From the IMG/VR virus record IMGVR_UViG_3300020716_000034, positions 1 through 27,730 of that record: 27,730 bases of DNA; one strand, written 5' to 3'. Source of the DNA: a virus. Taxonomy: Duplodnaviria; Caudoviricetes. Each line of letters opens with the position of its first letter. The first letter of the stretch is position 1. This document shows, one piece after another, positions 681 through 19,189 of the stretch. A model generated the notes under the pieces. The model had not been told where the DNA came from and made no database searches. It was given only the letters and a program-made list of their open reading frames with translations. A program made the translations under genes and the position numbers.

Positions 681-712
681 TACTAATGCATAATTATGCT
701 GGTAACCGCCCT
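681..712 (-). promoter_or_regulatory. putative phage promoter (AGGGCGG-N15-TGCATTAGTA)
   Basis: Minus strand reads AGGGCGGttaccagcataattaTGCATTAGTAtaaatagg; same core as six other gene-upstream sites. Confidence 0.7.
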
Positions 713-2153
713 ATTGGGCGTATGGATTAGAAAATCTTTTACCGGCAATATCGTCAGCATAGTCATAATCACGTGCAGGGAGGAAATCAAGCTGAAGCCA
801 CCCAGAATCCCTAAGAACCCGAAGTGCTTGGGAGAGGGAATCCACATAGTCATCGTGACCTTGCATTTCTGGAAACGAGCATACCTGACGGATAAACCGT
901 TTGGCCCAAGAAGCAAACTCGCCTTTTTGTTCAGGATCTTCTGGAATAAACACTTTGCCCTTAGCAACCAGTGGGGCCACAATGTTCAAACGTTGCACTT
1001 TGTCAGCGCGCCCAGGATTGTATCCACGGACTGGCACACCAGAACCTTGGAGTTCTTGGATGAGCGAGATACCCGCCGATTTGTCTTCCATCAGTATGAG
1101 GTCTGCTTTACGGCCTTTACCAAAATCATTGTCCGCGCCATACACAACCTCTTTAAAGTCCGAAATGACTTTACGACGCAGTTCAGGATAGGCAAGGTGT
1201 TCGTCCCATGAGTCTAACAGAATAACCGCAGTGCCAGCGTCTTGTTGTTCAAACACACCCCACACCGTACAAGCAGTTGGGTCGTTCATTGTCTTTTCGC
1301 TGGTGGCCGGATCGTATGAAGCAATCACATACTCGAGCGTTGGGGTTGGTCGATTGGCCGGCCACAGACGGAACTGTTTGCGTTTGATAATACCAGCAGA
1401 CTCTGGATCTAAAATCTCGCCATAAATTTCCTGACGACCAATGTCGGTGCCATCGTACGTCTCTAACTGTTTGAAAAATGTAGCAGACAGGTTATCTTTG
1501 TTGTCGTATGAACTGGCATTAACAACATAAACGTCGCCGCCTATCTTACCTTCATTAAGGTCGACGATGAGTTCCCGAGGTTTGGGGGTTGTAGTGATAA
1601 TCTGTTGCACCCGAGGGATGCGGGGGTCTTTAAGTCGAAGGGTAAACTGAACGCCATCATAAGCGTCGTCGAGGTAATCGAAAGCGCACAGCTCGTCGAA
1701 CCAGGCTCCATGGTATTGCTTACCTCGATAACGTTCTGGCTCGGAGGCGGGGATGCCTTGGATAATGGATCCGTTAGTGAGGGTGATTTCAAAGAGAGAC
1801 TTGTTGTAGTCTCGGATGAGGCTACGTGGGATAATATTAAGGAGTCCGGAATCTCCCTCAAAACAAGTCGCTCGTATGTCGTTAGAGGTTGGGGCGGTGA
1901 CGAGCCAGCGTGTGTTGTCGTACTTCCAAGCGCGAATGCCAATCCAATGGCTAGCAGTGTGCGTTTTGCCAGATCCGCGACCGGCAAGCATAAGAAAGGT
2001 GTCGTATTCTCCATCTTCAGGTTCTTTTTGATGAGGTAGCGCCTGAAGCGCCCATTTGACTTGCCATAGAGTAGCTTCAAGTTGTTGTTTTGGCCAGTGT
2101 TTGTGCGCTTCGGCAAATTTTTTAAGGGTGAGTTCTTGTTTTGGGGTTAACAT
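711..2153 (-). CDS. terL: terminase large subunit
   Basis: Walker A AGRGSGKT, Walker B AWFDE, coupling motif ITTTP, RNase H-like nuclease residues (SYDPA, MEDKSAG, HDDYVDSLSQAL). Confidence 0.95.
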   Translation of the reverse strand: MLTPKQELTLKKFAEAHKHWPKQQLEATLWQVKWALQALPHQKEPEDGEYDTFLMLAGRGSGKTHTASHWIGIRAWKYDNTRWLVTAPTSNDIRATCFEGDSGLLNIIPRSLIRDYNKSLFEITLTNGSIIQGIPASEPERYRGKQYHGAWFDELCAFDYLDDAYDGVQFTLRLKDPRIPRVQQIITTTPKPRELIVDLNEGKIGGDVYVVNASSYDNKDNLSATFFKQLETYDGTDIGRQEIYGEILDPESAGIIKRKQFRLWPANRPTPTLEYVIASYDPATSEKTMNDPTACTVWGVFEQQDAGTAVILLDSWDEHLAYPELRRKVISDFKEVVYGADNDFGKGRKADLILMEDKSAGISLIQELQGSGVPVRGYNPGRADKVQRLNIVAPLVAKGKVFIPEDPEQKGEFASWAKRFIRQVCSFPEMQGHDDYVDSLSQALRVLRDSGWLQLDFLPARDYDYADDIAGKRFSNPYAQ

Positions 2154-3139
2154 ACTGCGATAAATCCTTCTCCGACAAGAATTGAATTATTTTCCCCGTC
2201 AGTCTCAATGTGAACGCACATACGCGGCGCAACGGGTTTAATCTGCGCAATAAATCTGCGCCCATAATGTACTTTCACTGGCGGTGAGACCTGATTGTGT
2301 ACAAGTGGGATGCGAGATTTAAAAGTAACAGTGTAATCTTTCTTCCATTTATTATACTCGATAATCGTTTTGCTGCCAAGTGACTCTACCAGACCAGCAA
2401 CTTGTAAGACAGTGCCATAATGTCCATTCGTAAACCGAAACTCATCGTACTTTGGCGAATACTGGCGCGATTTGGCGTGCAATATGCCACGCAGCAACTC
2501 AATTCGCTGCTCGACGGACGCAAGCAGATAGTTTTCCGGAATTTTGGTCGGGACATTGGGGATTAACTGGCTGTGAATCGTGGGGCTAACGGAAAACGCG
2601 CGATTTTTGGTACGCAGTATCTCGTGATTGCGCACTTTGTAACCATGGTCTTTGAATTGTTCGCGCACAAATTCCTCTTTGTCCATGGGAGCAGCAAGTT
2701 TTCCGGTGGATTGCCGGGCAAAAAACCAAAATCCGAATAGGAAAGGCGGGATTGGGAGCGTCTGGTGTGGGAATTGGAGCGGGTGCGCTGTCGGAATGGA
2801 GTACAACGACCGGTTAAATCCATTTCGTAGCGGCGTTTCTAGCAGATCATCGGTCGTGTAATACTTTAACGGCCGTCTGAATTTGCGTTTGCCCTTGTAA
2901 GCTAAGAGGCGCTCACGATATTTCTTTGTTTCCAATAGGAAACCAAGCTTGCTGTCGCCCGTTACCGATAGGTGGTCGTTCAGAATCACCTCGTAGCAGG
3001 TCTCTGAGTAGTATTGCTGCACCAGTTTTACTTTTACCAGCTTGCCAGTGTTGTCAAACAGGTAGTCGCCTTGGATTATTTTGCTAGCGGGTTTCCAATA
3101 ATCAAGGGTTAGTACTTTTTCGTTTGCTGATATCGCCAT
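2147..3139 (-). CDS. free-standing intein-like protein (Hint + LAGLIDADG fold), catalytically degenerate
   Basis: N-terminus AISANEKVLTLDYWKPASKIIQGDYLFDNTGK resembles intein block A; IPPFLFGFWF and ELLRGILHAKS sit at the two LAGLIDADG positions; C-terminus RFIAQIKPVAPRMCVHIETD..ILVGEGFIAVC resembles blocks F/G but lacks the terminal HN. Confidence 0.75.
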   Translation of the reverse strand: MAISANEKVLTLDYWKPASKIIQGDYLFDNTGKLVKVKLVQQYYSETCYEVILNDHLSVTGDSKLGFLLETKKYRERLLAYKGKRKFRRPLKYYTTDDLLETPLRNGFNRSLYSIPTAHPLQFPHQTLPIPPFLFGFWFFARQSTGKLAAPMDKEEFVREQFKDHGYKVRNHEILRTKNRAFSVSPTIHSQLIPNVPTKIPENYLLASVEQRIELLRGILHAKSRQYSPKYDEFRFTNGHYGTVLQVAGLVESLGSKTIIEYNKWKKDYTVTFKSRIPLVHNQVSPPVKVHYGRRFIAQIKPVAPRMCVHIETDGENNSILVGEGFIAVC

Positions 3140-3410
3140 AAAAATTTTCTAAGACCCAACGGTCTAACCAAAGCCCAAGCGGGGCGCGAATTCTATTTTG
3201 AATCACGACGGGCAGCTTTTGGATATCCAGATTGGCCGTTGTCACTTTAAGCCGGAACTCAATGTACTTGGCTGTTTCTTTATCCAATATTTCTACTGGC
3301 ACATCGACAGAATCAAAATTGTACAAGTCACAAACCAAAACCCGAAGACCGGTGAGTCTTCCAGCTGTATTTTCCAATGCGCCTTGGATTTGGTAAACAT
3401 ACTTGTTCAT
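3102..3410 (-). CDS. hypothetical protein (102 aa), first gene of packaging operon
   Basis: ORF overlaps the start of the next gene; its ATG follows the promoter motif almost immediately. Confidence 0.7.
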   Translation of the reverse strand: MNKYVYQIQGALENTAGRLTGLRVLVCDLYNFDSVDVPVEILDKETAKYIEFRLKVTTANLDIQKLPVVIQNRIRAPLGLWLDRWVLENFYGDISKRKSTNP

Positions 3411-3416
3411 ATACCA

Positions 3417-3427
3417 ACTAATGCAAA
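3417..3427 (-). promoter_or_regulatory. putative phage promoter TTTGCATTAGT, probably leaderless transcript
   Basis: Minus strand TTTGCATTAGTtggtatATG; ATG 6 nt after the core with no room for an SD. Confidence 0.7.
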
Positions 3428-3462: not shown

Positions 3463-3660
3463 TGCGGTGAAGACGGGGTTGTCGATGTATTTTCAACTCC
3501 ATTTGAGAATATTAAATTTATTTTTATTTATTTTTAAAATAAGTTAAATAAACATCGGATACACCGGATACCCCGCAGTGCCTTGATTTCATTGAAGAAA
3601 ATTTACAAAAATTGTGCGGGGTTGACGGGGAAGACGATGAAGACGGGGAAGACGACGTTT
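3463..3660. repeat. origin-like iteron element, copy 1
   Basis: 9-bp-period CG repeats (GCGGGGTTG ACGGGGAAG ACGATGAAG ACGGGGAAG) and inverted arrays flanking an AT-rich core. 3545-3585 (41 bp) and 3614-3639 (26 bp) are identical to 10621-10661 and 10690-10715. Confidence 0.75.
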
Positions 3661-3663
3661 GTT

Positions 3664-3672
3664 TGTGGATAA
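3664..3672 (-). promoter_or_regulatory. DnaA box
   Basis: TGTGGATAA is the exact reverse complement of the consensus TTATCCACA, next to the iteron element. Confidence 0.6.
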
Positions 3673-3844
3673 CTCAGGTTTTGATGTTGTAAAAAAGAGA
3701 CACTTTTGTAGCAAAAAATTATAAAAAAAAATTTACAAACTTGCGTTTTGACCGGGTCCCCGGCCCGGGGGGAGGGGGTCTCCTTTTAAGGGGTATCGAC
3801 TTTAAAACAAACCCCCTCAATGCCTGCCCGAAAGCATGCTTATA

Positions 3845-3879
3845 TACCGCATTGCGAGATTACATTCCGCATTATGAAA
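3845..3879. promoter_or_regulatory. two IclR-family-like 15-bp palindromes
   Basis: TACCGCATTGCGAGA and TTCCGCATTATGAAA; related TTTCACAATGTGAAA at 10739-10753 and TCTCACATTGTGAAA at 23940-23954. Family assignment is tentative. Confidence 0.4.
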
Positions 3880-3893
3880 CAATACAGCGATGC

Positions 3894-4086
3894 GTTAGTG
3901 AGCGCTCACACACTTAGGCTATGCACCACAATGGTGCACTGCGTTGCAGCGCAGCATGATAGTGAGTACTTACTGACGATGCACCAGGTTGGTGCACTAC
4001 ATTGCGGCGCAGCATAGCAGTATGCCAATGCACCAGTATGGTGCACAGGATGGGGGCTAGCATTATGTTAGTGAGCGCATACTAAC
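3894..4086. repeat. three 20-bp imperfect palindromes approximating GTTAGTGAGCGCTCACTAAC
   Basis: 3894-3913 GTTAGTGAGCGCTCACACAC, 3958-3977 GATAGTGAGTACTTACTGAC, 4067-4086 GTTAGTGAGCGCATACTAAC. Confidence 0.75.
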
Positions 4087-4137
4087 ATAGAGGCAGGGCA
4101 GCAGGCTGGCGGTTAAGCAATGCACCAATATGGTGCA
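3922..4137. promoter_or_regulatory. four perfect NtrC-consensus sites TGCACCA-N3-TGGTGCA
   Basis: Copies at 3922-3938, 3980-3996, 4029-4045 and 4121-4137; only the 3-nt spacer varies (CAA, GGT, GTA, ATA). Confidence 0.8.
3945..4014. promoter_or_regulatory. two PhaR-like boxes (TGCRNYGCASMA)
   Basis: TGCAGCGCAGCA at 3945-3956 and TGCGGCGCAGCA at 4003-4014, each 6 nt after an NtrC box; a partial third copy lies near 4215. Confidence 0.5.
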
Positions 4138-4229
4138 TGAGCTGGTCGCGGCAATATGGCGGGACGCGTACGCGATGAGGCGGCATTGAGGGTGGGCGGA
4201 ATACTGTTAGATTGTGCAGCGCGGGATAT

Positions 4230-4255
4230 ACCACAAGATCCCACAATCTCCCACT
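4230..4255 (-). promoter_or_regulatory. MraZ-like direct repeats
   Basis: Minus strand GTGGGagattGTGGGatcttGTGGT: three GTGG cores at exact 10-bp period (CCAC at 4231, 4241, 4251). Confidence 0.55.
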
Positions 4256-4337
4256 AAGGGTAAACCCTATTAGGGTTTAAAGTTTGAAAACCTAGGGTTT
4301 TCCCTAATATACATAGCGTATAGATAGCCGTTATATT
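4256..4337 (+). promoter_or_regulatory. putative early promoter with AGGG-W4-CCCT palindromes
   Basis: AGGGTAAACCCT (4257-4268) and AGGGTTTTCCCT (4294-4305), then a -10-like TATATT (4332-4337); similar layout at 5239-5280. Confidence 0.5.
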
Positions 4338-4386: not shown

Positions 4387-5040
4387 ATGAATACTATCAA
4401 ACTATCGAAGACAAGCAAACTAGACGGCATTATGTCATGGAGCTTGCAAGCATTAGACACTTGTCCAGGCAGCAAGGCCGAAGGCGGCGGCCTAGTGCCA
4501 GCATGTCAAGGCTGCTATGCCACAACAGGGAATTATAGATTTAAGAATGTCAAAGCGCCGCGCGAATTCAATCGCAAAGATTGGCAGCGCGCCGAATGGG
4601 TTCGCGATATGGTTCAGGCGCTGGATTCGTCCCGTTACTTTCGTTGGCTAGATTCAGGCGATCTATATAGTGTAGATCTCGCTCGCAAGGTTTACGAAGT
4701 AATGGCCGCGACACCATGGGTTAAGCATTGGTTACCTACTAGAATGTATAAGTTTGCCAAGTTTGCCGATGTATTGGCGGCAATGGAGGCGCTGCCCAAT
4801 GTAGTAGTAAGGCGCTCTAGTGATTCAGTAAGCGGCGAGATTGTAAGCGGCGCGCACTCATCAACCATTATAAGCAGCGCGGAGCAGCTGCCAAGCGGCG
4901 CGACATTGTGCCGCGCGTATGAGCATGGCGGCACTTGTAACGGCTGCCGCGCATGCTATGACAAGGCCGCGCCAATTATTGCTTATATGGCGCATGGCAA
5001 AAGCATGGCCAAGGTAATACGTATCATGGCGGCGGCTTAA
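4387..5040 (+). CDS. Gp88-like protein (Cys-rich, putative Fe-S/radical-SAM-related)
   Basis: LSKTSK..SWSL..TCPG..CQGCYA..GNY, FRWLDSGD, HWLPTR and C-terminal CxxCRAC. ATG 4387 with AGAGGA RBS is preferred over the track start 4336. Confidence 0.75.
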   Translation: MNTIKLSKTSKLDGIMSWSLQALDTCPGSKAEGGGLVPACQGCYATTGNYRFKNVKAPREFNRKDWQRAEWVRDMVQALDSSRYFRWLDSGDLYSVDLARKVYEVMAATPWVKHWLPTRMYKFAKFADVLAAMEALPNVVVRRSSDSVSGEIVSGAHSSTIISSAEQLPSGATLCRAYEHGGTCNGCRACYDKAAPIIAYMAHGKSMAKVIRIMAAA

Positions 5041-5198: not shown

Positions 5199-5237
5199 TC
5201 ATGCTTAGAATTATGTACTCTTATGTTGTGGATCTAT

Positions 5238-5313: not shown

Positions 5314-5478
5314 ATGAGAAATTATAGAGTAGTGACTAGGCAATATACTTATTTAGTGGCTAATGTTATGGCTAATAGTAAAGAAGAGGCCGGCAAAATC
5401 GCCTTAGAATCTGATGCTTTAGACTGGGATTGGTGCGATTATGGCGATTCAGAAATTGAGTTAGTAGAGGAGGATTAA
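5314..5478 (+). CDS. small acidic hypothetical protein (54 aa)
   Basis: ATG 5314 after AAGGGG; in frame with track ORF 5263..5478. Confidence 0.7.
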   Translation: MRNYRVVTRQYTYLVANVMANSKEEAGKIALESDALDWDWCDYGDSEIELVEED

Positions 5479-5480
5479 TT

Positions 5481-5624
5481 ATGTACTACTGCAATGAATT
5501 TTGGTTTGATACATACGAAGAGGCGCGCGAATACGCCAATTTTCTAACGCGTCACGCCGGCATATATCGCGCTATTTTTACCCGCGCTGAAATGATCGCG
5601 CATAATATGGAGGCATTATCATGA
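5481..5624 (+). CDS. hypothetical protein (47 aa)
   Basis: GAGGAGG RBS; MYYCNEFWFDTYEEAREYA...; ATGA overlap with the next gene. Confidence 0.7.
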   Translation: MYYCNEFWFDTYEEAREYANFLTRHAGIYRAIFTRAEMIAHNMEALS

Positions 5625-5875
5625 GATCAATCCAATCACTAGCCGCGCAAGCCGGTAGAGAAGCCCGCGCCAATGGTTTACCATGCGATCCCAATGGCGG
5701 CACGTATCGCACCCGTACAGATGACGAGCAAGCCCAATATGAGAGCGATCAAGCATGGTGGGCTCGTCAATCTATTATTAAGTGTTACGGCTCAATGGAT
5801 AATTATTGCCGCATTTTGCGCCGCCAGCATGGCGTACACGATCACCCAGTAAAACCACAGGAGCATACAAAATGA
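5621..5875 (+). CDS. hypothetical protein (84 aa)
   Basis: GGAGG RBS; coupled overlaps at both ends. Confidence 0.7.
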   Translation: MRSIQSLAAQAGREARANGLPCDPNGGTYRTRTDDEQAQYESDQAWWARQSIIKCYGSMDNYCRILRRQHGVHDHPVKPQEHTK

Positions 5876-6177
5876 TTGATTTAAACGATATTGAGATTAT
5901 TGAAGGCGATACAACGGCCACAACCCAGCAATACTATGAATCCATTCAGAAGGCCATCAACACCGGCTTATGGGGTTTACAGGGCTCTTATGGCCGCACA
6001 ATGATGGCGGCTATTAACGATGGCTATTGTATGCTAGGCCGCAATGAAGCGCACGACTACTACGGCAACCATATACCAAGCCGCGACCAAGTGCAAGCCG
6101 GTACAAAGGGATCATTTGATTATGTCGCGGCAGAGTGCGGCGAAGGATGGGCACAACATATGAGCGAGGTGAAATAA
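5872..6177 (+). CDS. hypothetical protein (101 aa)
   Basis: AGGAG RBS before ATG 5872; contains W.LQGSYGR motif familiar from phage early proteins. Confidence 0.75.
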   Translation: MIDLNDIEIIEGDTTATTQQYYESIQKAINTGLWGLQGSYGRTMMAAINDGYCMLGRNEAHDYYGNHIPSRDQVQAGTKGSFDYVAAECGEGWAQHMSEVK

Positions 6178-6353
6178 TGAATGTAGATAAAATTAAAGCA
6201 ATGGTATCGGATCTTAATTACCAGTATTCTAATTTAGTAGAAGCCTCGGTACAAGAGGCAATAGATGGGCAACCCGATGCCGAATGCGACACCATGTTTG
6301 CAGAGATTCAAACCTTAGTTAAATTGATATACAAAGAATTGGAGGAGGTATGA
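6177..6353 (+). CDS. hypothetical protein (58 aa)
   Basis: GAGGTG RBS, TAATG overlap. Confidence 0.7.
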   Translation: MNVDKIKAMVSDLNYQYSNLVEASVQEAIDGQPDAECDTMFAEIQTLVKLIYKELEEV

Positions 6354-6601
6354 TGGACAAACTAGAGCAAGCCTATACCATGGATTTATTGGCGCGTCTT
6401 ACTGAATCGATCGAGACATACCTAGACGATGATCGCTGGGATGGCATAGACGCGATGCACAAGGAGATTAAAGAAGCCAATAAGCTAGTACGCAAATACT
6501 ATAAACGTATGCGTGCACAACAGGCAGCAGAAGAGCAAGACGCGAAGCAGACTGAATGGTTACGAAAGGCCAATGCAGCAATTAGAGAAGGGAGCGTATG
6601 A
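6350..6601 (+). CDS. hypothetical coiled-coil protein (83 aa)
   Basis: GGAGG RBS, ATGA overlap. Confidence 0.7.
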   Translation: MMDKLEQAYTMDLLARLTESIETYLDDDRWDGIDAMHKEIKEANKLVRKYYKRMRAQQAAEEQDAKQTEWLRKANAAIREGSV

Positions 6602-6741
6602 TGACTAGATATACCATCACCATGGAGATTACAGTCGCGGACACAGACGCGCCGCCGAGCGACTGGATGCCAGTATCAATTGAGGCATTGATGGAAGACG
6701 GCGAGACAATCGACTATTTTGTATGTGAGGAGATTAAATAA
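6601..6741 (+). CDS. small acidic hypothetical protein (46 aa)
   Basis: Manually read MTRYTITMEITVADTDAPPSDW...; GGGAG RBS; fills the gap exactly. Confidence 0.65.
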   Translation: MTRYTITMEITVADTDAPPSDWMPVSIEALMEDGETIDYFVCEEIK

Positions 6742-6962
6742 TGAGATACGAAGTGCAACAAGCTACTATATGCGACGGATGGACAAATACTTGGCATGAG
6801 TACGACGATGACAACAACGAAGTACCAATGACCTTCGATACATTCGAGGAGGCTCTATTGGAGCTAGACGAGTACTTGTACGACATTGAGAAAGCATACA
6901 ACATGGGAGATATTGATTCACCTGAAGACCGCGACAATTTTAGAATTGTAGAGGTGAAATAA
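6741..6962 (+). CDS. very acidic hypothetical protein (73 aa)
   Basis: GAGGAG RBS; about 21 D/E versus 5 K/R. Confidence 0.75.
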   Translation: MRYEVQQATICDGWTNTWHEYDDDNNEVPMTFDTFEEALLELDEYLYDIEKAYNMGDIDSPEDRDNFRIVEVK

Positions 6963-7195
6963 TGAAGCGAGAATATACTGTAAATTTATTGGTGCGTCGT
7001 TCTGATTCAATTGAACCATGCCAAAAATGCAGCCTCCAATACCAATGCGATGCGAATCGCTTAGCATGTACTCAGTTTAGATTTTTTGTAAACACTGGCC
7101 GCATGCCAGTCGATAGTGCGCGATATCCAACACGCGAGATTTATATGGATGTATTTCACAATGAACCAGCAATGACAAGGAGAGCAACATCATGA
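6962..7195 (+). CDS. Cys-rich hypothetical protein (77 aa)
   Basis: PCQKC..C..LAC..F pattern suggests a metal ligand; GAGGTG RBS. Confidence 0.7.
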   Translation: MKREYTVNLLVRRSDSIEPCQKCSLQYQCDANRLACTQFRFFVNTGRMPVDSARYPTREIYMDVFHNEPAMTRRATS

Positions 7196-7401
7196 GAGTA
7201 GGCACAATTTACTATAACAAAAACACCGATACCACCGAAGTTAGATGGTCAGATAATTTTGTTGTAGACCAATGGATTACTAAAATGGACGTACTAAAAG
7301 ACGTTCAGGGTATAACATGGATGGCATATGATTATGTACACGACAACCATGACAACAAATACAATGGAGACGGGTATATCCCCGAAACATTACAAGGATA
7401 A
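7192..7401 (+). CDS. hypothetical protein (69 aa)
   Basis: AAGGAG RBS, ATGA overlap. Confidence 0.7.
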   Translation: MRVGTIYYNKNTDTTEVRWSDNFVVDQWITKMDVLKDVQGITWMAYDYVHDNHDNKYNGDGYIPETLQG

Positions 7402-7515
7402 ATGATGACACACACAATGAAGTTTAATAATATCAACGAGATGATAGAGTGGATTGTAGAGAATGAGTTTTACAACCTATTGCCAGTAGACTTAACCATT
7501 CATTTAGGAGAATAA
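7402..7515 (+). CDS. hypothetical protein (37 aa)
   Basis: Manually read ORF after AAGGA; fills the gap. Confidence 0.45.
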   Translation: MMTHTMKFNNINEMIEWIVENEFYNLLPVDLTIHLGE

Positions 7516-7516
7516 T

Positions 7517-7828
7517 ATGTTGCACGAGATCACAATGCGTACTATTGAAGATTACTTTCAAAAGCCAACCGATGACATTGACGAGTTAGGTCATATTGAC
7601 CGAGAGATCAAGCAGCTAGAAAGCAGAGCTCGAGCACTTAAAGCCAGACTGATTGAGCGCGGCGTTGGCGTGTATAAAGGTGTACGATTTACCGCCGAAG
7701 TGCAACACTATGCACGCGCAACCATTAGCCCCATTTTGGTTAAAGAGTTTGGCACTACCGACTTTGTCGCGCAGGTAACCCAAGTTAAATCCGTTGATGC
7801 TGTTGTAGTTAGAGAAATCGGAGTATAA
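7517..7828 (+). CDS. hypothetical protein (103 aa)
   Basis: AGGAG RBS; N-terminal coiled coil IDELGHIDREIKQLE. Confidence 0.75.
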   Translation: MLHEITMRTIEDYFQKPTDDIDELGHIDREIKQLESRARALKARLIERGVGVYKGVRFTAEVQHYARATISPILVKEFGTTDFVAQVTQVKSVDAVVVREIGV

Positions 7829-7832
7829 TTAA

Positions 7833-8009
7833 ATGCGATTCGTTGGGTTTATACTTTTAATCATTGGCGCAAATGCCTATGAACACGATTACTACAATGG
7901 AATAGAGGGCATAAGATGGGATACACTTGGCATGGTTATTGTAGGATTTTTATTGTTATTCCCGAACTTCATCAGTTTATTCGGGGATAGAAATGTCAAA
8001 AGAAAATGA
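7833..8009 (+). CDS. small membrane protein (58 aa)
   Basis: Manually read MRFVGFILLIIGANAY...LGMVIVGFLLLFPNFISLF; GGAG RBS; two hydrophobic segments. Confidence 0.6.
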   Translation: MRFVGFILLIIGANAYEHDYYNGIEGIRWDTLGMVIVGFLLLFPNFISLFGDRNVKRK

Positions 8010-8568
8010 TTTATTAAGCGACTACCTAAACTCACTATATGGCATTGAACCATTGACAACCGAGGAGGAACACGAGCTAGCTGCTCGTATCTCCCAAGGT
8101 GATGCACTGGCATTAGACAAACTTATTACCCATAACCTTCGGTTTGTGGTGTATGTGGTGCGTAAGATGACAGCATGGGCACATGGCAAAGTGCCAGTAG
8201 AGGATATGATCGCGATGGGCAATGAAGCGTTATTCAAGGCGGCGCGGCAATGGACACCAACCAATAACGCGCGCTTTGCCACCTTTGCAAAATCGTTCAT
8301 TTTGATGGATGTCAGGCGCAATCTTGACAATACCGCCAATTTGATTCGTTTGCCTATCAATATCATGGAACAAATTAAGAAACTCAATTACAATGATAGA
8401 GTGTTATTTCAGATGCTTGGGCGCAAACCCAAATCGTCAGAATTAGCAAAGATCATGGGAATATCGGAATCAAAGGTGCACCAGCTACAAGGGTATATCA
8501 CACGCGAACCGATATCACTTGATAACATTAACCAAGAAAAATACATTGAGGAACTTAACGATGATTAA
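7993..8568 (+). CDS. sigma-70 family RNA polymerase sigma factor (regions 1.2-3, no region 4)
   Basis: Region 1.2 DYLNSL..PLTTEEEHELA, 2.1 LITHNLRFVV, 2.2 EDMIAMGNEALFKAA, 2.3 RFATFA, 3 LIRLP..LGRKP..ELAKIMGIS, ending shortly after ISLD. Confidence 0.9.
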   Translation: MSKENDLLSDYLNSLYGIEPLTTEEEHELAARISQGDALALDKLITHNLRFVVYVVRKMTAWAHGKVPVEDMIAMGNEALFKAARQWTPTNNARFATFAKSFILMDVRRNLDNTANLIRLPINIMEQIKKLNYNDRVLFQMLGRKPKSSELAKIMGISESKVHQLQGYITREPISLDNINQEKYIEELNDD

Positions 8569-10425: not shown

Positions 10426-10454
10426 TCGACTCTGTCTCCATTTAAATCGTTATG

Positions 10455-10715
10455 AATCAACGACTTGCGGGGTATCCGATGTTTGTGCGGTGTTTGAAAT
10501 GAAAAATGCTGAAAAAACCACTTATAAATCAACGACTTGCGGGGTATCCGATGTATCCGATGTATTTTCAAGTCATTCCATATAATATTTATTTTTTATT
10601 TTTTATTTTTTAAATAAACATAAATAAACATCGGATACACCGGATACCCCGCAGTGCCTTGTTTTTAAAGGAGATTTTTTGGGAAAATCGTGCGGGGTTG
10701 ACGGGGAAGACGATG
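10455..10715. other. putative replication origin (iteron element copy 2, with IHF sites)
   Basis: 25-bp inverted arms 10539-10563 and 10628-10652 (1 mismatch) around an AT-rich core; two WATCAANNNNTTR IHF matches (10455-10467, 10527-10539); directly upstream of primase-helicase. Confidence 0.7.
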
Positions 10716-10731: not shown

Positions 10732-10759
10732 AATTATTTTTCACAATGTGAAACGAGGA

Positions 10760-14069: not shown

Positions 14070-14422
14070 CCACCTTCACCACACAAGACCGGCAAGATGC
14101 CGAACGAGACGGAAAATGCCAACACTGCCAAAACGGGTGTATTGCCTGTGATGCTAGAGTTTTATTAACTCAAGAAGTGTTACGCATCGGTGAGATATTA
14201 GGCTTGAAGACAACCAGCTCCGACTACAACGCCTTCAAGGTAATGGAAGTCATCAAGCAACTCATCGACGCCAGCCGACTCGCCAGCAAGCCAATGAAAA
14301 AGCGCCCGTTGACCGACCAAGAGTTACTTAAAATGGCATCAGATAAGTTTCATTACACCGAGTACAAACTCGCAATCGAGTTCGCCCGTGCCATCGAACG
14401 CGCCCACGGAATAGGAGAATAG
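14066..14422 (+). CDS. hypothetical protein (118 aa)
   Basis: AAGGAG RBS; CQHC..CIACDA and PLTD.E..FARAIERAHGI motifs. Confidence 0.75.
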   Translation: MTTFTTQDRQDAERDGKCQHCQNGCIACDARVLLTQEVLRIGEILGLKTTSSDYNAFKVMEVIKQLIDASRLASKPMKKRPLTDQELLKMASDKFHYTEYKLAIEFARAIERAHGIGE

Positions 14423-14496
14423 GAGAATAGGAGAATAGGAGAATAGGAGAATAGGAGAATAGGAGAATAGGAGAATAGGAGAATAGGAGAATAGGA
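14409..14496 (+). repeat. perfect tandem repeat (GAATAGGA)x11
   Basis: 88 bp read directly from sequence. Confidence 0.95.
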
Positions 14497-17792: not shown

Positions 17793-18083
17793 ATGGATAA
17801 AATTGAACTGATGAACGGCATCATCAAACTGGCTAGGCCAGCAATGCCGCAAGATTACAAACTGACTTCACTAGATACCCCATTATCTGATACGGGTATG
17901 GACAGCCTGGATTTTCTTATGGCCAGCATATATCTATCAGATGTGTATGGGGTATCGGAAGATGATCTCAAAGCTATGGTGATGACCCCAGAAAGCACAA
18001 TAAACGACCTATTTGCTTACATGGAAGCCCACGCAACCATCACGCCAACCAACGCACAAGAAGCATTAAAGGCACTGGGATGA
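17793..18083 (+). CDS. acyl carrier protein
   Basis: 96 aa, acidic, phosphopantetheine motif DTPLSDTGMDSLD, with ..TINDLFAY in helix IV position. Confidence 0.85.
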   Translation: MDKIELMNGIIKLARPAMPQDYKLTSLDTPLSDTGMDSLDFLMASIYLSDVYGVSEDDLKAMVMTPESTINDLFAYMEAHATITPTNAQEALKALG

Positions 18084-19189
18084 CCATTTATCTGTCAGAC
18101 TACCGCACTGCCAGTACGACCTACACAGAAATGTTGGAGGATGTGGATTACCCACAACGGGTGCATTGGTTCCCCGATACTTATGCCAAAGTAAAAACAG
18201 GCTTAACTTATGTGCCACACAAACTGGCTGATAAGGTTCTCGACCCCGCCTTATTGGCCAGCTTGCGCGAACGTTGCGGTAAAACCGCATTCATATTAGC
18301 TGCGGGTAATGCCCATTTTGCTGGCATCAACCCCAAAGATCCAGCGCCAAATCGTTTTGCATACGACTATCGGTTCTTAGCTCTGTCGCTTACTCAGGTA
18401 TATGCTGGACGGATAGCCCAGCTGTGTGGGGCTCAGGATATGGTAATTACAGATTCATCAGCCTGCGCGTCCAGTCTTAAAGTCATGATGGATGTGTATA
18501 GCCTAATTAACTTTTATAAGTTTGATCGCGTTGTAGTACTAGCCGTAGAAGACACTGTAAACAACACAGTGCTAAAATTCTTTGGCGAAACAAAAGCGTC
18601 TCTTACAAAAGACATTGAAGACACAGGCATTAAACCATCAGCTTTTGATGACCACAACTACGGATTTAATATAGGGCAAGGTGCGGCGTTTGCGGTATTT
18701 GAGAATGATTCTTATTGTCAAATGCCTGTGGCCCGTTTACTTGGAGCTTATGCTTCCAGTGAACAAAGCACCAACGCAATCGGGCAGCGAGAAGATGGTG
18801 AAGGGTTTGTTAAAGCAGCGGCGGGCGCCCTGCGGATGGCCAACATGTCACCACGAGACATTAGCATTGTAAAGACCCATGGCACCGGCACAAAGTCAAA
18901 CAATCAGTCGGAACGCAATGCTTTGTCAACACTGTTTGATTCGCCGTTTATTGCCACGTCTTATAAACAAGTAATTGGCCATACTATGGGCGCATCAGGT
19001 TTATTGGAAACCTGTTTGTTATTAGACAGTTTACGTTCTGGTCTAGTACCAGCAATCCCAAACAAAACAAAGCAAGATGACGTTTATTTGTCAAATGATT
19101 ATCCTGTTACAAAACCAGTAAAGATTTTGTCTCAAGCTGCAGGAATGGGAAATATTTATGCAGCAGCAATTTTTGATACTCAGTTATGA
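18080..19189 (+). CDS. beta-ketoacyl-ACP synthase (FabB/FabF-like ketosynthase)
   Basis: Cys-His-His triad intact: DSSACASS, VKTHGTGT, YKQVIGHTMGASG; also PSAFD..GFNIGQGAA and GMGN at the GFGG position. Confidence 0.9.
   Translation: MTIYLSDYRTASTTYTEMLEDVDYPQRVHWFPDTYAKVKTGLTYVPHKLADKVLDPALLASLRERCGKTAFILAAGNAHFAGINPKDPAPNRFAYDYRFLALSLTQVYAGRIAQLCGAQDMVITDSSACASSLKVMMDVYSLINFYKFDRVVVLAVEDTVNNTVLKFFGETKASLTKDIEDTGIKPSAFDDHNYGFNIGQGAAFAVFENDSYCQMPVARLLGAYASSEQSTNAIGQREDGEGFVKAAAGALRMANMSPRDISIVKTHGTGTKSNNQSERNALSTLFDSPFIATSYKQVIGHTMGASGLLETCLLLDSLRSGLVPAIPNKTKQDDVYLSNDYPVTKPVKILSQAAGMGNIYAAAIFDTQL

Follow-up and report, generated by a model that had tools for sequence, protein, structure and literature searches.

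The DNA considered here, "the window," is the whole of IMG/VR virus record IMGVR_UViG_3300020716_000034 (27,730 nucleotides; G000 in our set), a partial genome of a lytic tailed phage. In the 976-bp gap where its genes switch direction, with the terminase side on the minus strand and the early side on the plus strand, lies a dense array of sites resembling operators of unrelated host regulators. The array is real, and its identification with host operators is well supported by sequence comparison. Our preferred reading of its role, held tentatively and with somewhat less than even confidence, is that a 410-bp segment between two conserved "brackets" (~3754-4165) may serve in cis as a landing pad for host proteins that are abundant and bind tightly, and that would coat the DNA end at a packaging cut or short terminal repeat. 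What is new here is the modularity and the position of the array.

A motif re-scan recovered every motif that the initial annotation had listed in 3660-4310, each in its place (Table 1), and they are enriched over background. In a scan whose matrices were trained with the window and its nearest relative left out (except for the sigma-54 matrix, which was kept as it was), this stretch holds 13 sites of six types, the other 27,079 bp of the window hold nine sites, and 1000 dinucleotide shuffles gave a mean of 0.03 and a maximum of two. The densest 650 bp of a genome from the probable host genus hold five sites of three types. Both PhaR-like copies and the TGTTGT motif fell below the threshold in this leave-out scan. 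For the NtrC-type pattern TGCACCA-N3-TGGTGCA, allowing up to two mismatches, the whole window has four matches against 0.16 expected, and none of 100 shuffles reached four.

Three short open reading frames (ORFs; 54-65 aa) overlap the stretch, which had been described as lacking a credible gene. Because relatives shuffle and resize it, we agree that it is non-coding. Contigs L016 and L054 carry an identical array stretch, L003/L055 and L032 show substitutions and the deletion of one unit, and three further runs also have contigs covering it. An assembly artifact is excluded, because independent contigs and runs carry the array, some with variants. The metagenome runs containing the array are from freshwater.

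To whom do these sites belong? Three terL relatives sit in one betaproteobacterial bin (G001) of the genus Polynucleobacter, which hints weakly at a Polynucleobacter-like host; of eight phage proteins only the sigma factor matched the host-genus genome, which gives no host link at the level of genes. This genome (G035; 1.85 of 1.886 Mb) was scanned with matrices built from phage copies only. The NtrC matrix found an ATP-grasp gene, a TorF-like gene, and a transglutaminase. Across the genus the motif is present in 20 of 41 genomes (reversed control, 0), and among 19 loci it precedes glnA at seven, the ATP-grasp gene at three, and the TorF-like gene at two; in G001, too, it lies upstream of glnA. 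The TTTCACA matrix placed isocitrate lyase (aceA), an IclR-family gene, and aceE at ranks 2-5, and TTCCGCATTATGAAA is accordingly named here as a predicted IclR-type site. For the MraZ matrix the top match was mraZ itself, and for the PhaR matrix phaR was the fourth. Positions 3943-3956 of the window are identical over 14 bases to the site upstream of host phaR, one of 15 14-mers shared by window and host and hence telling only by its place. The labels NtrC, PhaR, and MraZ given by the initial annotation thus hold in this genome.

Similarly, a Fur matrix built from copies in relatives led to feoAB, an OprB porin, and a HiPIP gene. The top two host matches of a matrix for CIRCE (controlling inverted repeat of chaperone expression), again from relatives, lie at one groES-like and one RpoH-like gene, which we take to be groES and an RpoH-like sigma gene from their sequences; hrcA is present in five of five host-genus genomes. 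The motif that we presume to be sigma-54-type is less clear in the host: none of its 14 top matches in G035 is intergenic, and rpoN was found in 10 of 31 genus genomes, with G035 outside those tested. Candidate motifs M-Q did not map to host intergenic DNA.

The GTTAGTGAG palindrome (GT/ATAGTGAG) matches the published SlmA site (PMC3020112, PMC4423959), agreeing in their available text with GTGAGTACTCAC and the longer consensus of SlmA-binding sites (SBS), and we read it as SlmA-type. Relatives contain GTAAGTGAGCGCTCACT, which also matches the consensus, and slmA scores over the cut-off in five of five host-genus genomes. In G035, 24 of the 30 best SBS matches lie in the origin half of the chromosome (p = 0.0005); among seven other motifs only TGTTG, at 60 matches, was biased in this way (p = 0.018). 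A loose SBS pattern in three more genomes placed 21 of 28 sites in the origin half, but it matched no more often than its control did, and some of these sites are orthologs of one another. Host SBS copies are few, degenerate, and in many cases intergenic, while E. coli sites are reported outside promoters; this, with the result of the loose pattern, speaks against the SlmA identity. As a separate observation, G035 and other genus genomes share a conserved SBS-like site (bases 145-197) at the chromosome start, beside the probable origin.

Scanning viral contigs for tandem NtrC-type sites gave 52 loci, 48 of them from this phage's clade and at the same place. With loci reached through GP88 and terL added there were 58 regions; removal of redundant ones left 42, and three from the bacterial bin brought the set to 45. 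The NtrC frequency in this set (42/45) is inflated by ascertainment, and clade counts use clade-trained matrices; nonetheless, all seven regions found through proteins and not through the motif (L057, L059, L063, L089, L133-L135) carry arrays. Their content is freely exchanged. Relatives add sigma-54-type (10-13 regions), Fur-type (16-20), CIRCE (4), and IHF-type (34) motifs, SBS is missing from 12 of the 45, and some arrays are nearly of a single type (ten sigma-54 sites in L089, five SBS in L057, seven PhaR sites in L002). Site order takes 44 forms in 45 regions, which bears out the prediction that motifs would be kept while order and spacers are shuffled. In L133 the array region also has four copies of an AGATCA-N-TTGATC-type palindrome, to which no binder is assigned.

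The place, by comparison, is fixed. Of 270 core sites (NtrC, SBS, sigma-54, PhaR, CIRCE) in the 41 regions with both brackets, none lies to the left, 266 lie between the brackets, and four lie to the right. The bracketed segment measures 216-631 bp, and its first site begins 8-152 bp from the left bracket. All 17 MraZ copies and most TAGGG sites are right of the right bracket, and in most relatives (33 of 35) IHF-type sites are left of the left one. Complete relatives are 65-68 kb long, and three long records each show a single dense cluster.

Table 1. Features of the gap and of its neighbors, by position in the window.
Feature	Position	Strand	Basis
Terminase large subunit	711..2153	-	PF03237, PF17289, phrog_2/38; transcribed away from the array
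Free-standing intein/LAGLIDADG-like protein	2147..3139	-	Partial phrog_15 match; 47-100% in relatives; kept clade-wide
Conserved ORF, 102 aa	3102..3410	-	45-100% identity in relatives; anchor for aligning them
TTTGCATTAGTA motif	3410..3427	-	Word recurs at 675, 10760, 17776, 21092, 22373, 23971 before other phage genes
Origin-like element, AT core flanked by opposed short repeats	3463..3660		Distinct from operator array; putative origin
DnaA-type 9-mer, single	3664..3672	-	One in 4-6/45 relatives
TGTTGT-A6-GAGACA, imperfect TGTTG-N8-CAACA-type	3685..3702		Better copies in 7-8/45 relatives
Left bracket, G/C-run element and imperfect inverted repeat	3750..3818		Short pattern in 45/45 regions; two stems
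IclR-type sites, two (TTCCGCATTATGAAA)	3844..3880		Weak at 3844, strong at ~3864; leave-out scan and host matches
SlmA-type site 1	3894..3913		Leave-out scan; published SBS consensus match
NtrC-type site 1	3922..3938		Pattern and host matches
PhaR-type site 1 (TGCRGCGCAGCA at 3945)	3941..3957		14 bases identical to site upstream of host phaR; sub-threshold in leave-out scan
SlmA-type site 2	3958..3977		Contains GTGAGTACTTAC, one base off the consensus in the available text of PMC3020112
NtrC-type site 2	3980..3996		Pattern match
PhaR-type site 2, weaker (TGCRGCGCAGCA at 4003)	4003..4014		Motif match
NtrC-type site 3	4029..4045		Pattern match
SlmA-type site 3	4067..4086		Leave-out scan
NtrC-type site 4	4121..4137		Pattern match
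Right bracket, CGCG..CGCGA then GGTGG	4164..4199	+	41/45 regions
MraZ-type triple box, CCAC at 10-bp period (GTGG on minus strand)	4229..4255	-	Top host match upstream of mraZ
TAGGG-W4-CCCTA sites, two (AGGG-W4-CCCT at 4257, 4294)	4254..4308		12/15 top host matches intergenic vs 8% background
Sigma-70-like promoter candidate	4308..4337	+	9/12 positions match; 1 found vs 2.7 in shuffles, not significant
First early gene, GP88 family	4387..5040	+	PF17338

Could the sites not be host sites at all? They might instead bind a phage protein, form a structured RNA or single-stranded DNA element, or reflect neutral repeat expansion. We think this very improbable. The segment folds well (z = -5.35), microsatellite runs and local duplications are common in relatives, and small phage ORFs are mostly unannotated. 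Set against this, each of at least six different motifs leads to its own regulon in the host, and the palindrome arms are kept in sequence, beyond what pairing alone would ask. A structured RNA, tried as a candidate on the strength of the folding score, was rejected: the palindromes account for the folding, and the best Rfam score was 23 bits against a gathering score of 228.9, so that the structured non-coding RNA named beforehand as a possible refutation is not borne out. As for phage proteins, a TetR domain was found in none of five related records, and the sigma factor is the only regulator among 94 of the 96 ORFs called in a complete relative. General family scans likewise recognized no NtrC-, PhaR-, MraZ-, or DnaA-type regulator among the window's proteins, as had been noted at the outset.

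Here, we must explain why we look to the DNA end. Two conserved brackets and a position upstream of the terminase suggest, by analogy, a packaging cut or short repeat; the left bracket would be a candidate cut or terminal-repeat boundary, and the right bracket a candidate second boundary. Contig depth is raised over the array relative to its neighbors (33.5 vs 16-20 in X4, 12 vs 6-7 in X5, 7.5 vs 3-4 in X6, and 37 vs 32-33 in X3). Contig depth is no copy number, and this weak hint of a ~450-bp terminal repeat could equally come from collapsed strains. The available text of PMC11053796 gives no termini for Caulobacter RW, and the Pureglobe5 record carries no repeat annotation.

If the brackets do mark an end, the selected property would be dense occupancy beside it, and not the regulatory output of any single protein. 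We favor a role in occupancy and position because regulators of nitrogen, division, storage polymer, iron, and heat shock share no output, yet replace one another at a fixed place. Host NtrC, SlmA, IclR-type proteins, and PhaR would bind within seconds after entry, or after the terminase has cut, with no phage protein synthesis. Their coat could hinder end-loading nucleases or end sensors, or hold the end during entry, and a block of cell division by the loaded SlmA could be an added gain. Such a protein-free route may be rewarded because end-binding proteins can cost the phage, exposing it to Gabija according to the accessible part of PMC12407980, and because end-sensing defenses exist, as documented in the available portion of 10.1101/2023.08.10.552762.

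A different use of the same sites, which we consider rather unlikely, is host manipulation by a "decoy": the hundreds of sites on a replicating genome would titrate repressors and switch on SlmA, blocking FtsZ rings and division. SBS is the site type most widely common to unrelated lineages, SBS-bound SlmA acts on FtsZ in the published work available to us (PMC3020112, PMC4423959), and all five host-genus genomes have the slmA gene for such a decoy to act through. In addition, the host has few strong sites per type, and NtrC copies are more symmetric in the phage than the host's best (0.98 vs 0.79). However, IclR-type, CIRCE, and PhaR sites are no more symmetric than the host's, and a decoy needs no fixed place, whereas here the brackets enclose the sites, which begin only a few bases away from a C/G run. 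A targeted decoy, like nutrient sensing, is disfavored because the site types are interchangeable, with even SBS absent from a good part of the clade. A division block by plasmid-borne SBS is reported, but a search of the available literature found no mention of it.

Looking beyond the clade, we found tandem SBS at no fewer than 121 viral loci and tandem sigma-54 sites at no fewer than 123. Scrambled versions of two patterns gave 0 matches, against 52 for NtrC and the SBS figure just cited. Long flanks were taken for 80 loci per set, which was then cleared of clade members, redundant loci, and any locus shorter than 3 kb. Within the locus, terL is found at 40 of 50 non-clade tandem-SBS loci and 28 of 56 tandem-sigma-54 loci, with its transcription directed away from the array in each case; when 128 of 200 listed ORFs were scanned against PHROG, terL came out near 37 of the 50 SBS loci. 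At 45% identity, the terL proteins sampled from SBS loci make up seven groups besides the window's clade. Among the 121 loci listed (redundant ones included), 82 have an SBS within 60 bp of a C/G run, most often at 2-6 bp, compared with 20 of 276 control positions. The layout in other lineages runs from the late side through an A tract, a C/G run, and the SBS cluster to the early genes.

We put forward, still more tentatively than for the window itself, a wider proposal: in many unrelated tailed phages, a DNA-only module at the packaging cut may recruit a mixed host coat (SlmA, NtrC, sigma-54 polymerase, Fur, PhaR, HrcA) that shields or anchors the end from entry, the injection stop signal (iss) of T5 being a special case. 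In T5-like DT57C (L520), the same matrices find clusters of six Fur-type and five DnaA-type sites within the terminal repeat, at 5460-7580 on the left; a palindrome that we take to be LexA-like lies there as well. Some SBS clusters lie by tail-fiber, primase, or D5-like regulator genes and not by the terminase (L298, L320, L282, L326, L327, L301, L260); they may mark the genome ends of other architectures. NtrC-type arrays occur in unrelated phages as well (L029 2950-3190, L048 2870-3120, L026/L045), that of L029 having about ten copies beside an HNH gene and terL.

Several points weigh against a coat at the genome end. RecBCD pushes through protein roadblocks, and early ejection is driven by pressure, which makes a ratchet at the leading end doubtful. 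Contig ends do not pile up at the brackets. Apart from the point where early and late genes diverge, there is often no large non-coding gap, and cis elements of any kind would thus collect near the terminase. No terL lies near 10 of the 50 SBS loci and 28 of the 56 sigma-54 loci. Scans of cultured phages found no array in Curvibacter P26059A (70 of 84 kb), P26059B, or Rhodoferax P26218, in stretches of DSL-LC05, Ralstonia RpY1, Caulobacter RW, or MW202545, or at the left ends of phiKMV, JG068, LUZ24, phiEco32, and RSB1 (records starting there). Because these phages show none, the array is not needed in general. A blastn search of the region and five array fragments against 50,697 phage records also returned no cultured phage with the array. 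Finally, Shedu nicks ~13 nt from the end, as the available text of 10.1101/2023.08.10.552762 has it, which is nearer than the first site in most relatives.

An interchangeable multi-regulator array was not found in the phage literature searched (open papers and preprints, without supplements). Among described cases, the T5 iss region comes closest; there, eight DnaA boxes are proposed, from in silico work, to stop injection (Davison, 10.1101/866236). In the portion of that work available, T5 shares with the window's phage a long terminal non-coding stretch, repeats and palindromes, and clustered host-protein sites proposed to act on entering DNA; it differs in relying on one host protein in a fixed arrangement, with two-step injection and A1/A2, instead of many interchangeable regulators. 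The ordered eight boxes in inverted repeats have their only counterpart here in one poorly kept 9-mer. The same portion of the preprint does not mention Fur or LexA. No A1/A2 family was named among the proteins of the window or of G042 in general scans, no search having been aimed at it.

Other known systems share parts of this design. The SlmA nucleoid occlusion system uses the same SBS consensus, and in G035 its motif is concentrated in the origin half; chromosomal sites, however, are dispersed, whereas in these phages three to seven predicted sites crowd into a few hundred bases, mixed with other operators. An NtrC enhancer with a sigma-54 promoter, as at glnAp2, has the same tandem TGCACCA-N3-TGGTGCA sites, and the host copies precede glnA and other nitrogen genes. 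The window's array has no oriented -24/-12 site, unlike that type, and the sigma-54 sites of relatives, up to ten per array, face both ways (23 minus, 15 plus). Host-factor sites are also known at packaging origins, such as the IHF site in lambda cos. There, too, a host-protein site adjoins the packaging region, much as IHF-type sites of relatives fall left of the left bracket, but lambda has one architectural site of fixed geometry, and the variable array lies on the opposite side. End-binding proteins of the Mu Gam type may share a purpose, the guarding of linear DNA ends; according to the accessible text of PMC12407980 they are phage-encoded and made after entry, whereas here DNA alone would act through host proteins.

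The gap as a whole falls into three zones: an origin-like left, the bracketed middle, and an early-gene side on the right. The initial annotation had treated 3660-4310 as one array. Its dense host-type sites stand, but the left part goes with an iteron element, origin-like in character, of which a second copy precedes the primase gene: 3483-3639 and 10558-10715, the latter upstream of the primase-helicase gene, match each other at 82.5%. The repeat word differs among relatives, as one would expect of an origin, and we read 3463-3660 as a putative one. The two origin-like copies, 3463-3660 and 10450-10715, lie 7 kb apart, and a bipartite origin is possible. The DnaA box claimed earlier fared likewise; the 9-mer, which we presume to be such a box, is there but is poorly conserved (Table 1). 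In the host genome, one of the 15 top matches of the TGTTG motif is intergenic.

An origin-like element directly left of the left bracket also raises the idea of a barrier or insulator, in which the covered segment would stop a fork, helicase, or transcription between this element and the early genes, or else orient the terminase or set the repeat boundary. Any tight binder would suffice, which fits the interchangeability, and the strict one-sidedness of the sites is as expected. We nevertheless hold it to be improbable: in other lineages the SBS array has iteron-like repeats on its opposite flank or none that we could see, and the second origin-like copy has no array.

On the right, AGGG-W4-CCCT had been counted as an array motif. 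Both copies are present, but the motif also occurs at other early-gene spacers, with a further copy at 5236, and the TAGGG-W4-CCCTA sites are probably early-promoter elements. By its matches TAGGG is a host intergenic motif, with no owner assigned. Strong IclR-type sites at 10738 and 23939 stand just upstream of the primase and single-stranded DNA-binding protein (SSB) genes, with like places in relatives, and replication genes may respond through them to host carbon state. Control of promoters, in which host nitrogen, carbon, iron, or heat state tunes early transcription or origin firing, is thus likely true for TAGGG and some IclR-type sites, and NtrC and sigma-54 sites do occur together in some relatives. 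For the array at large we find it slightly more improbable even than a barrier. The window's array has NtrC sites but no sigma-54 site, those of relatives point both ways, neither site order nor spacing to the first gene is kept, and SlmA reportedly does not act through promoters (PMC3020112, in the text available). Helical phasing of neighboring sites was tried and is not claimed (R = 0.19, on non-independent relatives).

Some observations on the rest of the window may be useful to others. The plus-strand early and replication genes encode GP88, a sigma-70-like factor, a methylase, a primase-helicase, a helicase, an exonuclease, an Enc34-type SSB, and a class II ribonucleotide reductase. The sigma factor (7993-8568) is the probable user of TTTGCATTAGTA, which lies ahead of middle and late genes and would be its promoter element. 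The LAGLIDADG/Hom_end-like protein directly upstream of terL across the clade has no Pfam match; its Atlas neighbors with LAGLIDADG_3/Hom_end, at 0.91-0.96, are a lead only. A small terminase was not recognized there; the protein may be a domesticated homing endonuclease, or it may serve packaging by nicking DNA. Profile searches gave no family for the 102-aa ORF. A beta-ketoacyl synthase gene (18080-19189, plus strand; PF00109 and PF02801) has no match in the host-genus genome, is absent from three long relatives, and contains a Fur-type box at 18697. Between small genes at 14409-14496 runs a perfect 8-bp tandem repeat of about 11 copies.

Linear phage DNA has to enter the cell and survive there before the first phage protein exists; how it does so is an open question, and the non-coding stretches at genome ends usually go unexplained. 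A swappable module of host operators beside the terminase, in at least eight lineages, offers a system in which this can be directly tested. Since the motif set mirrors the regulators of the host, it may also aid in assigning hosts to uncultured phages. If a host-protein coat at the DNA end proves true, it would give a fresh reading of the T5 iss repeats, and a gene-free stop to host division, through SlmA, would be possible.

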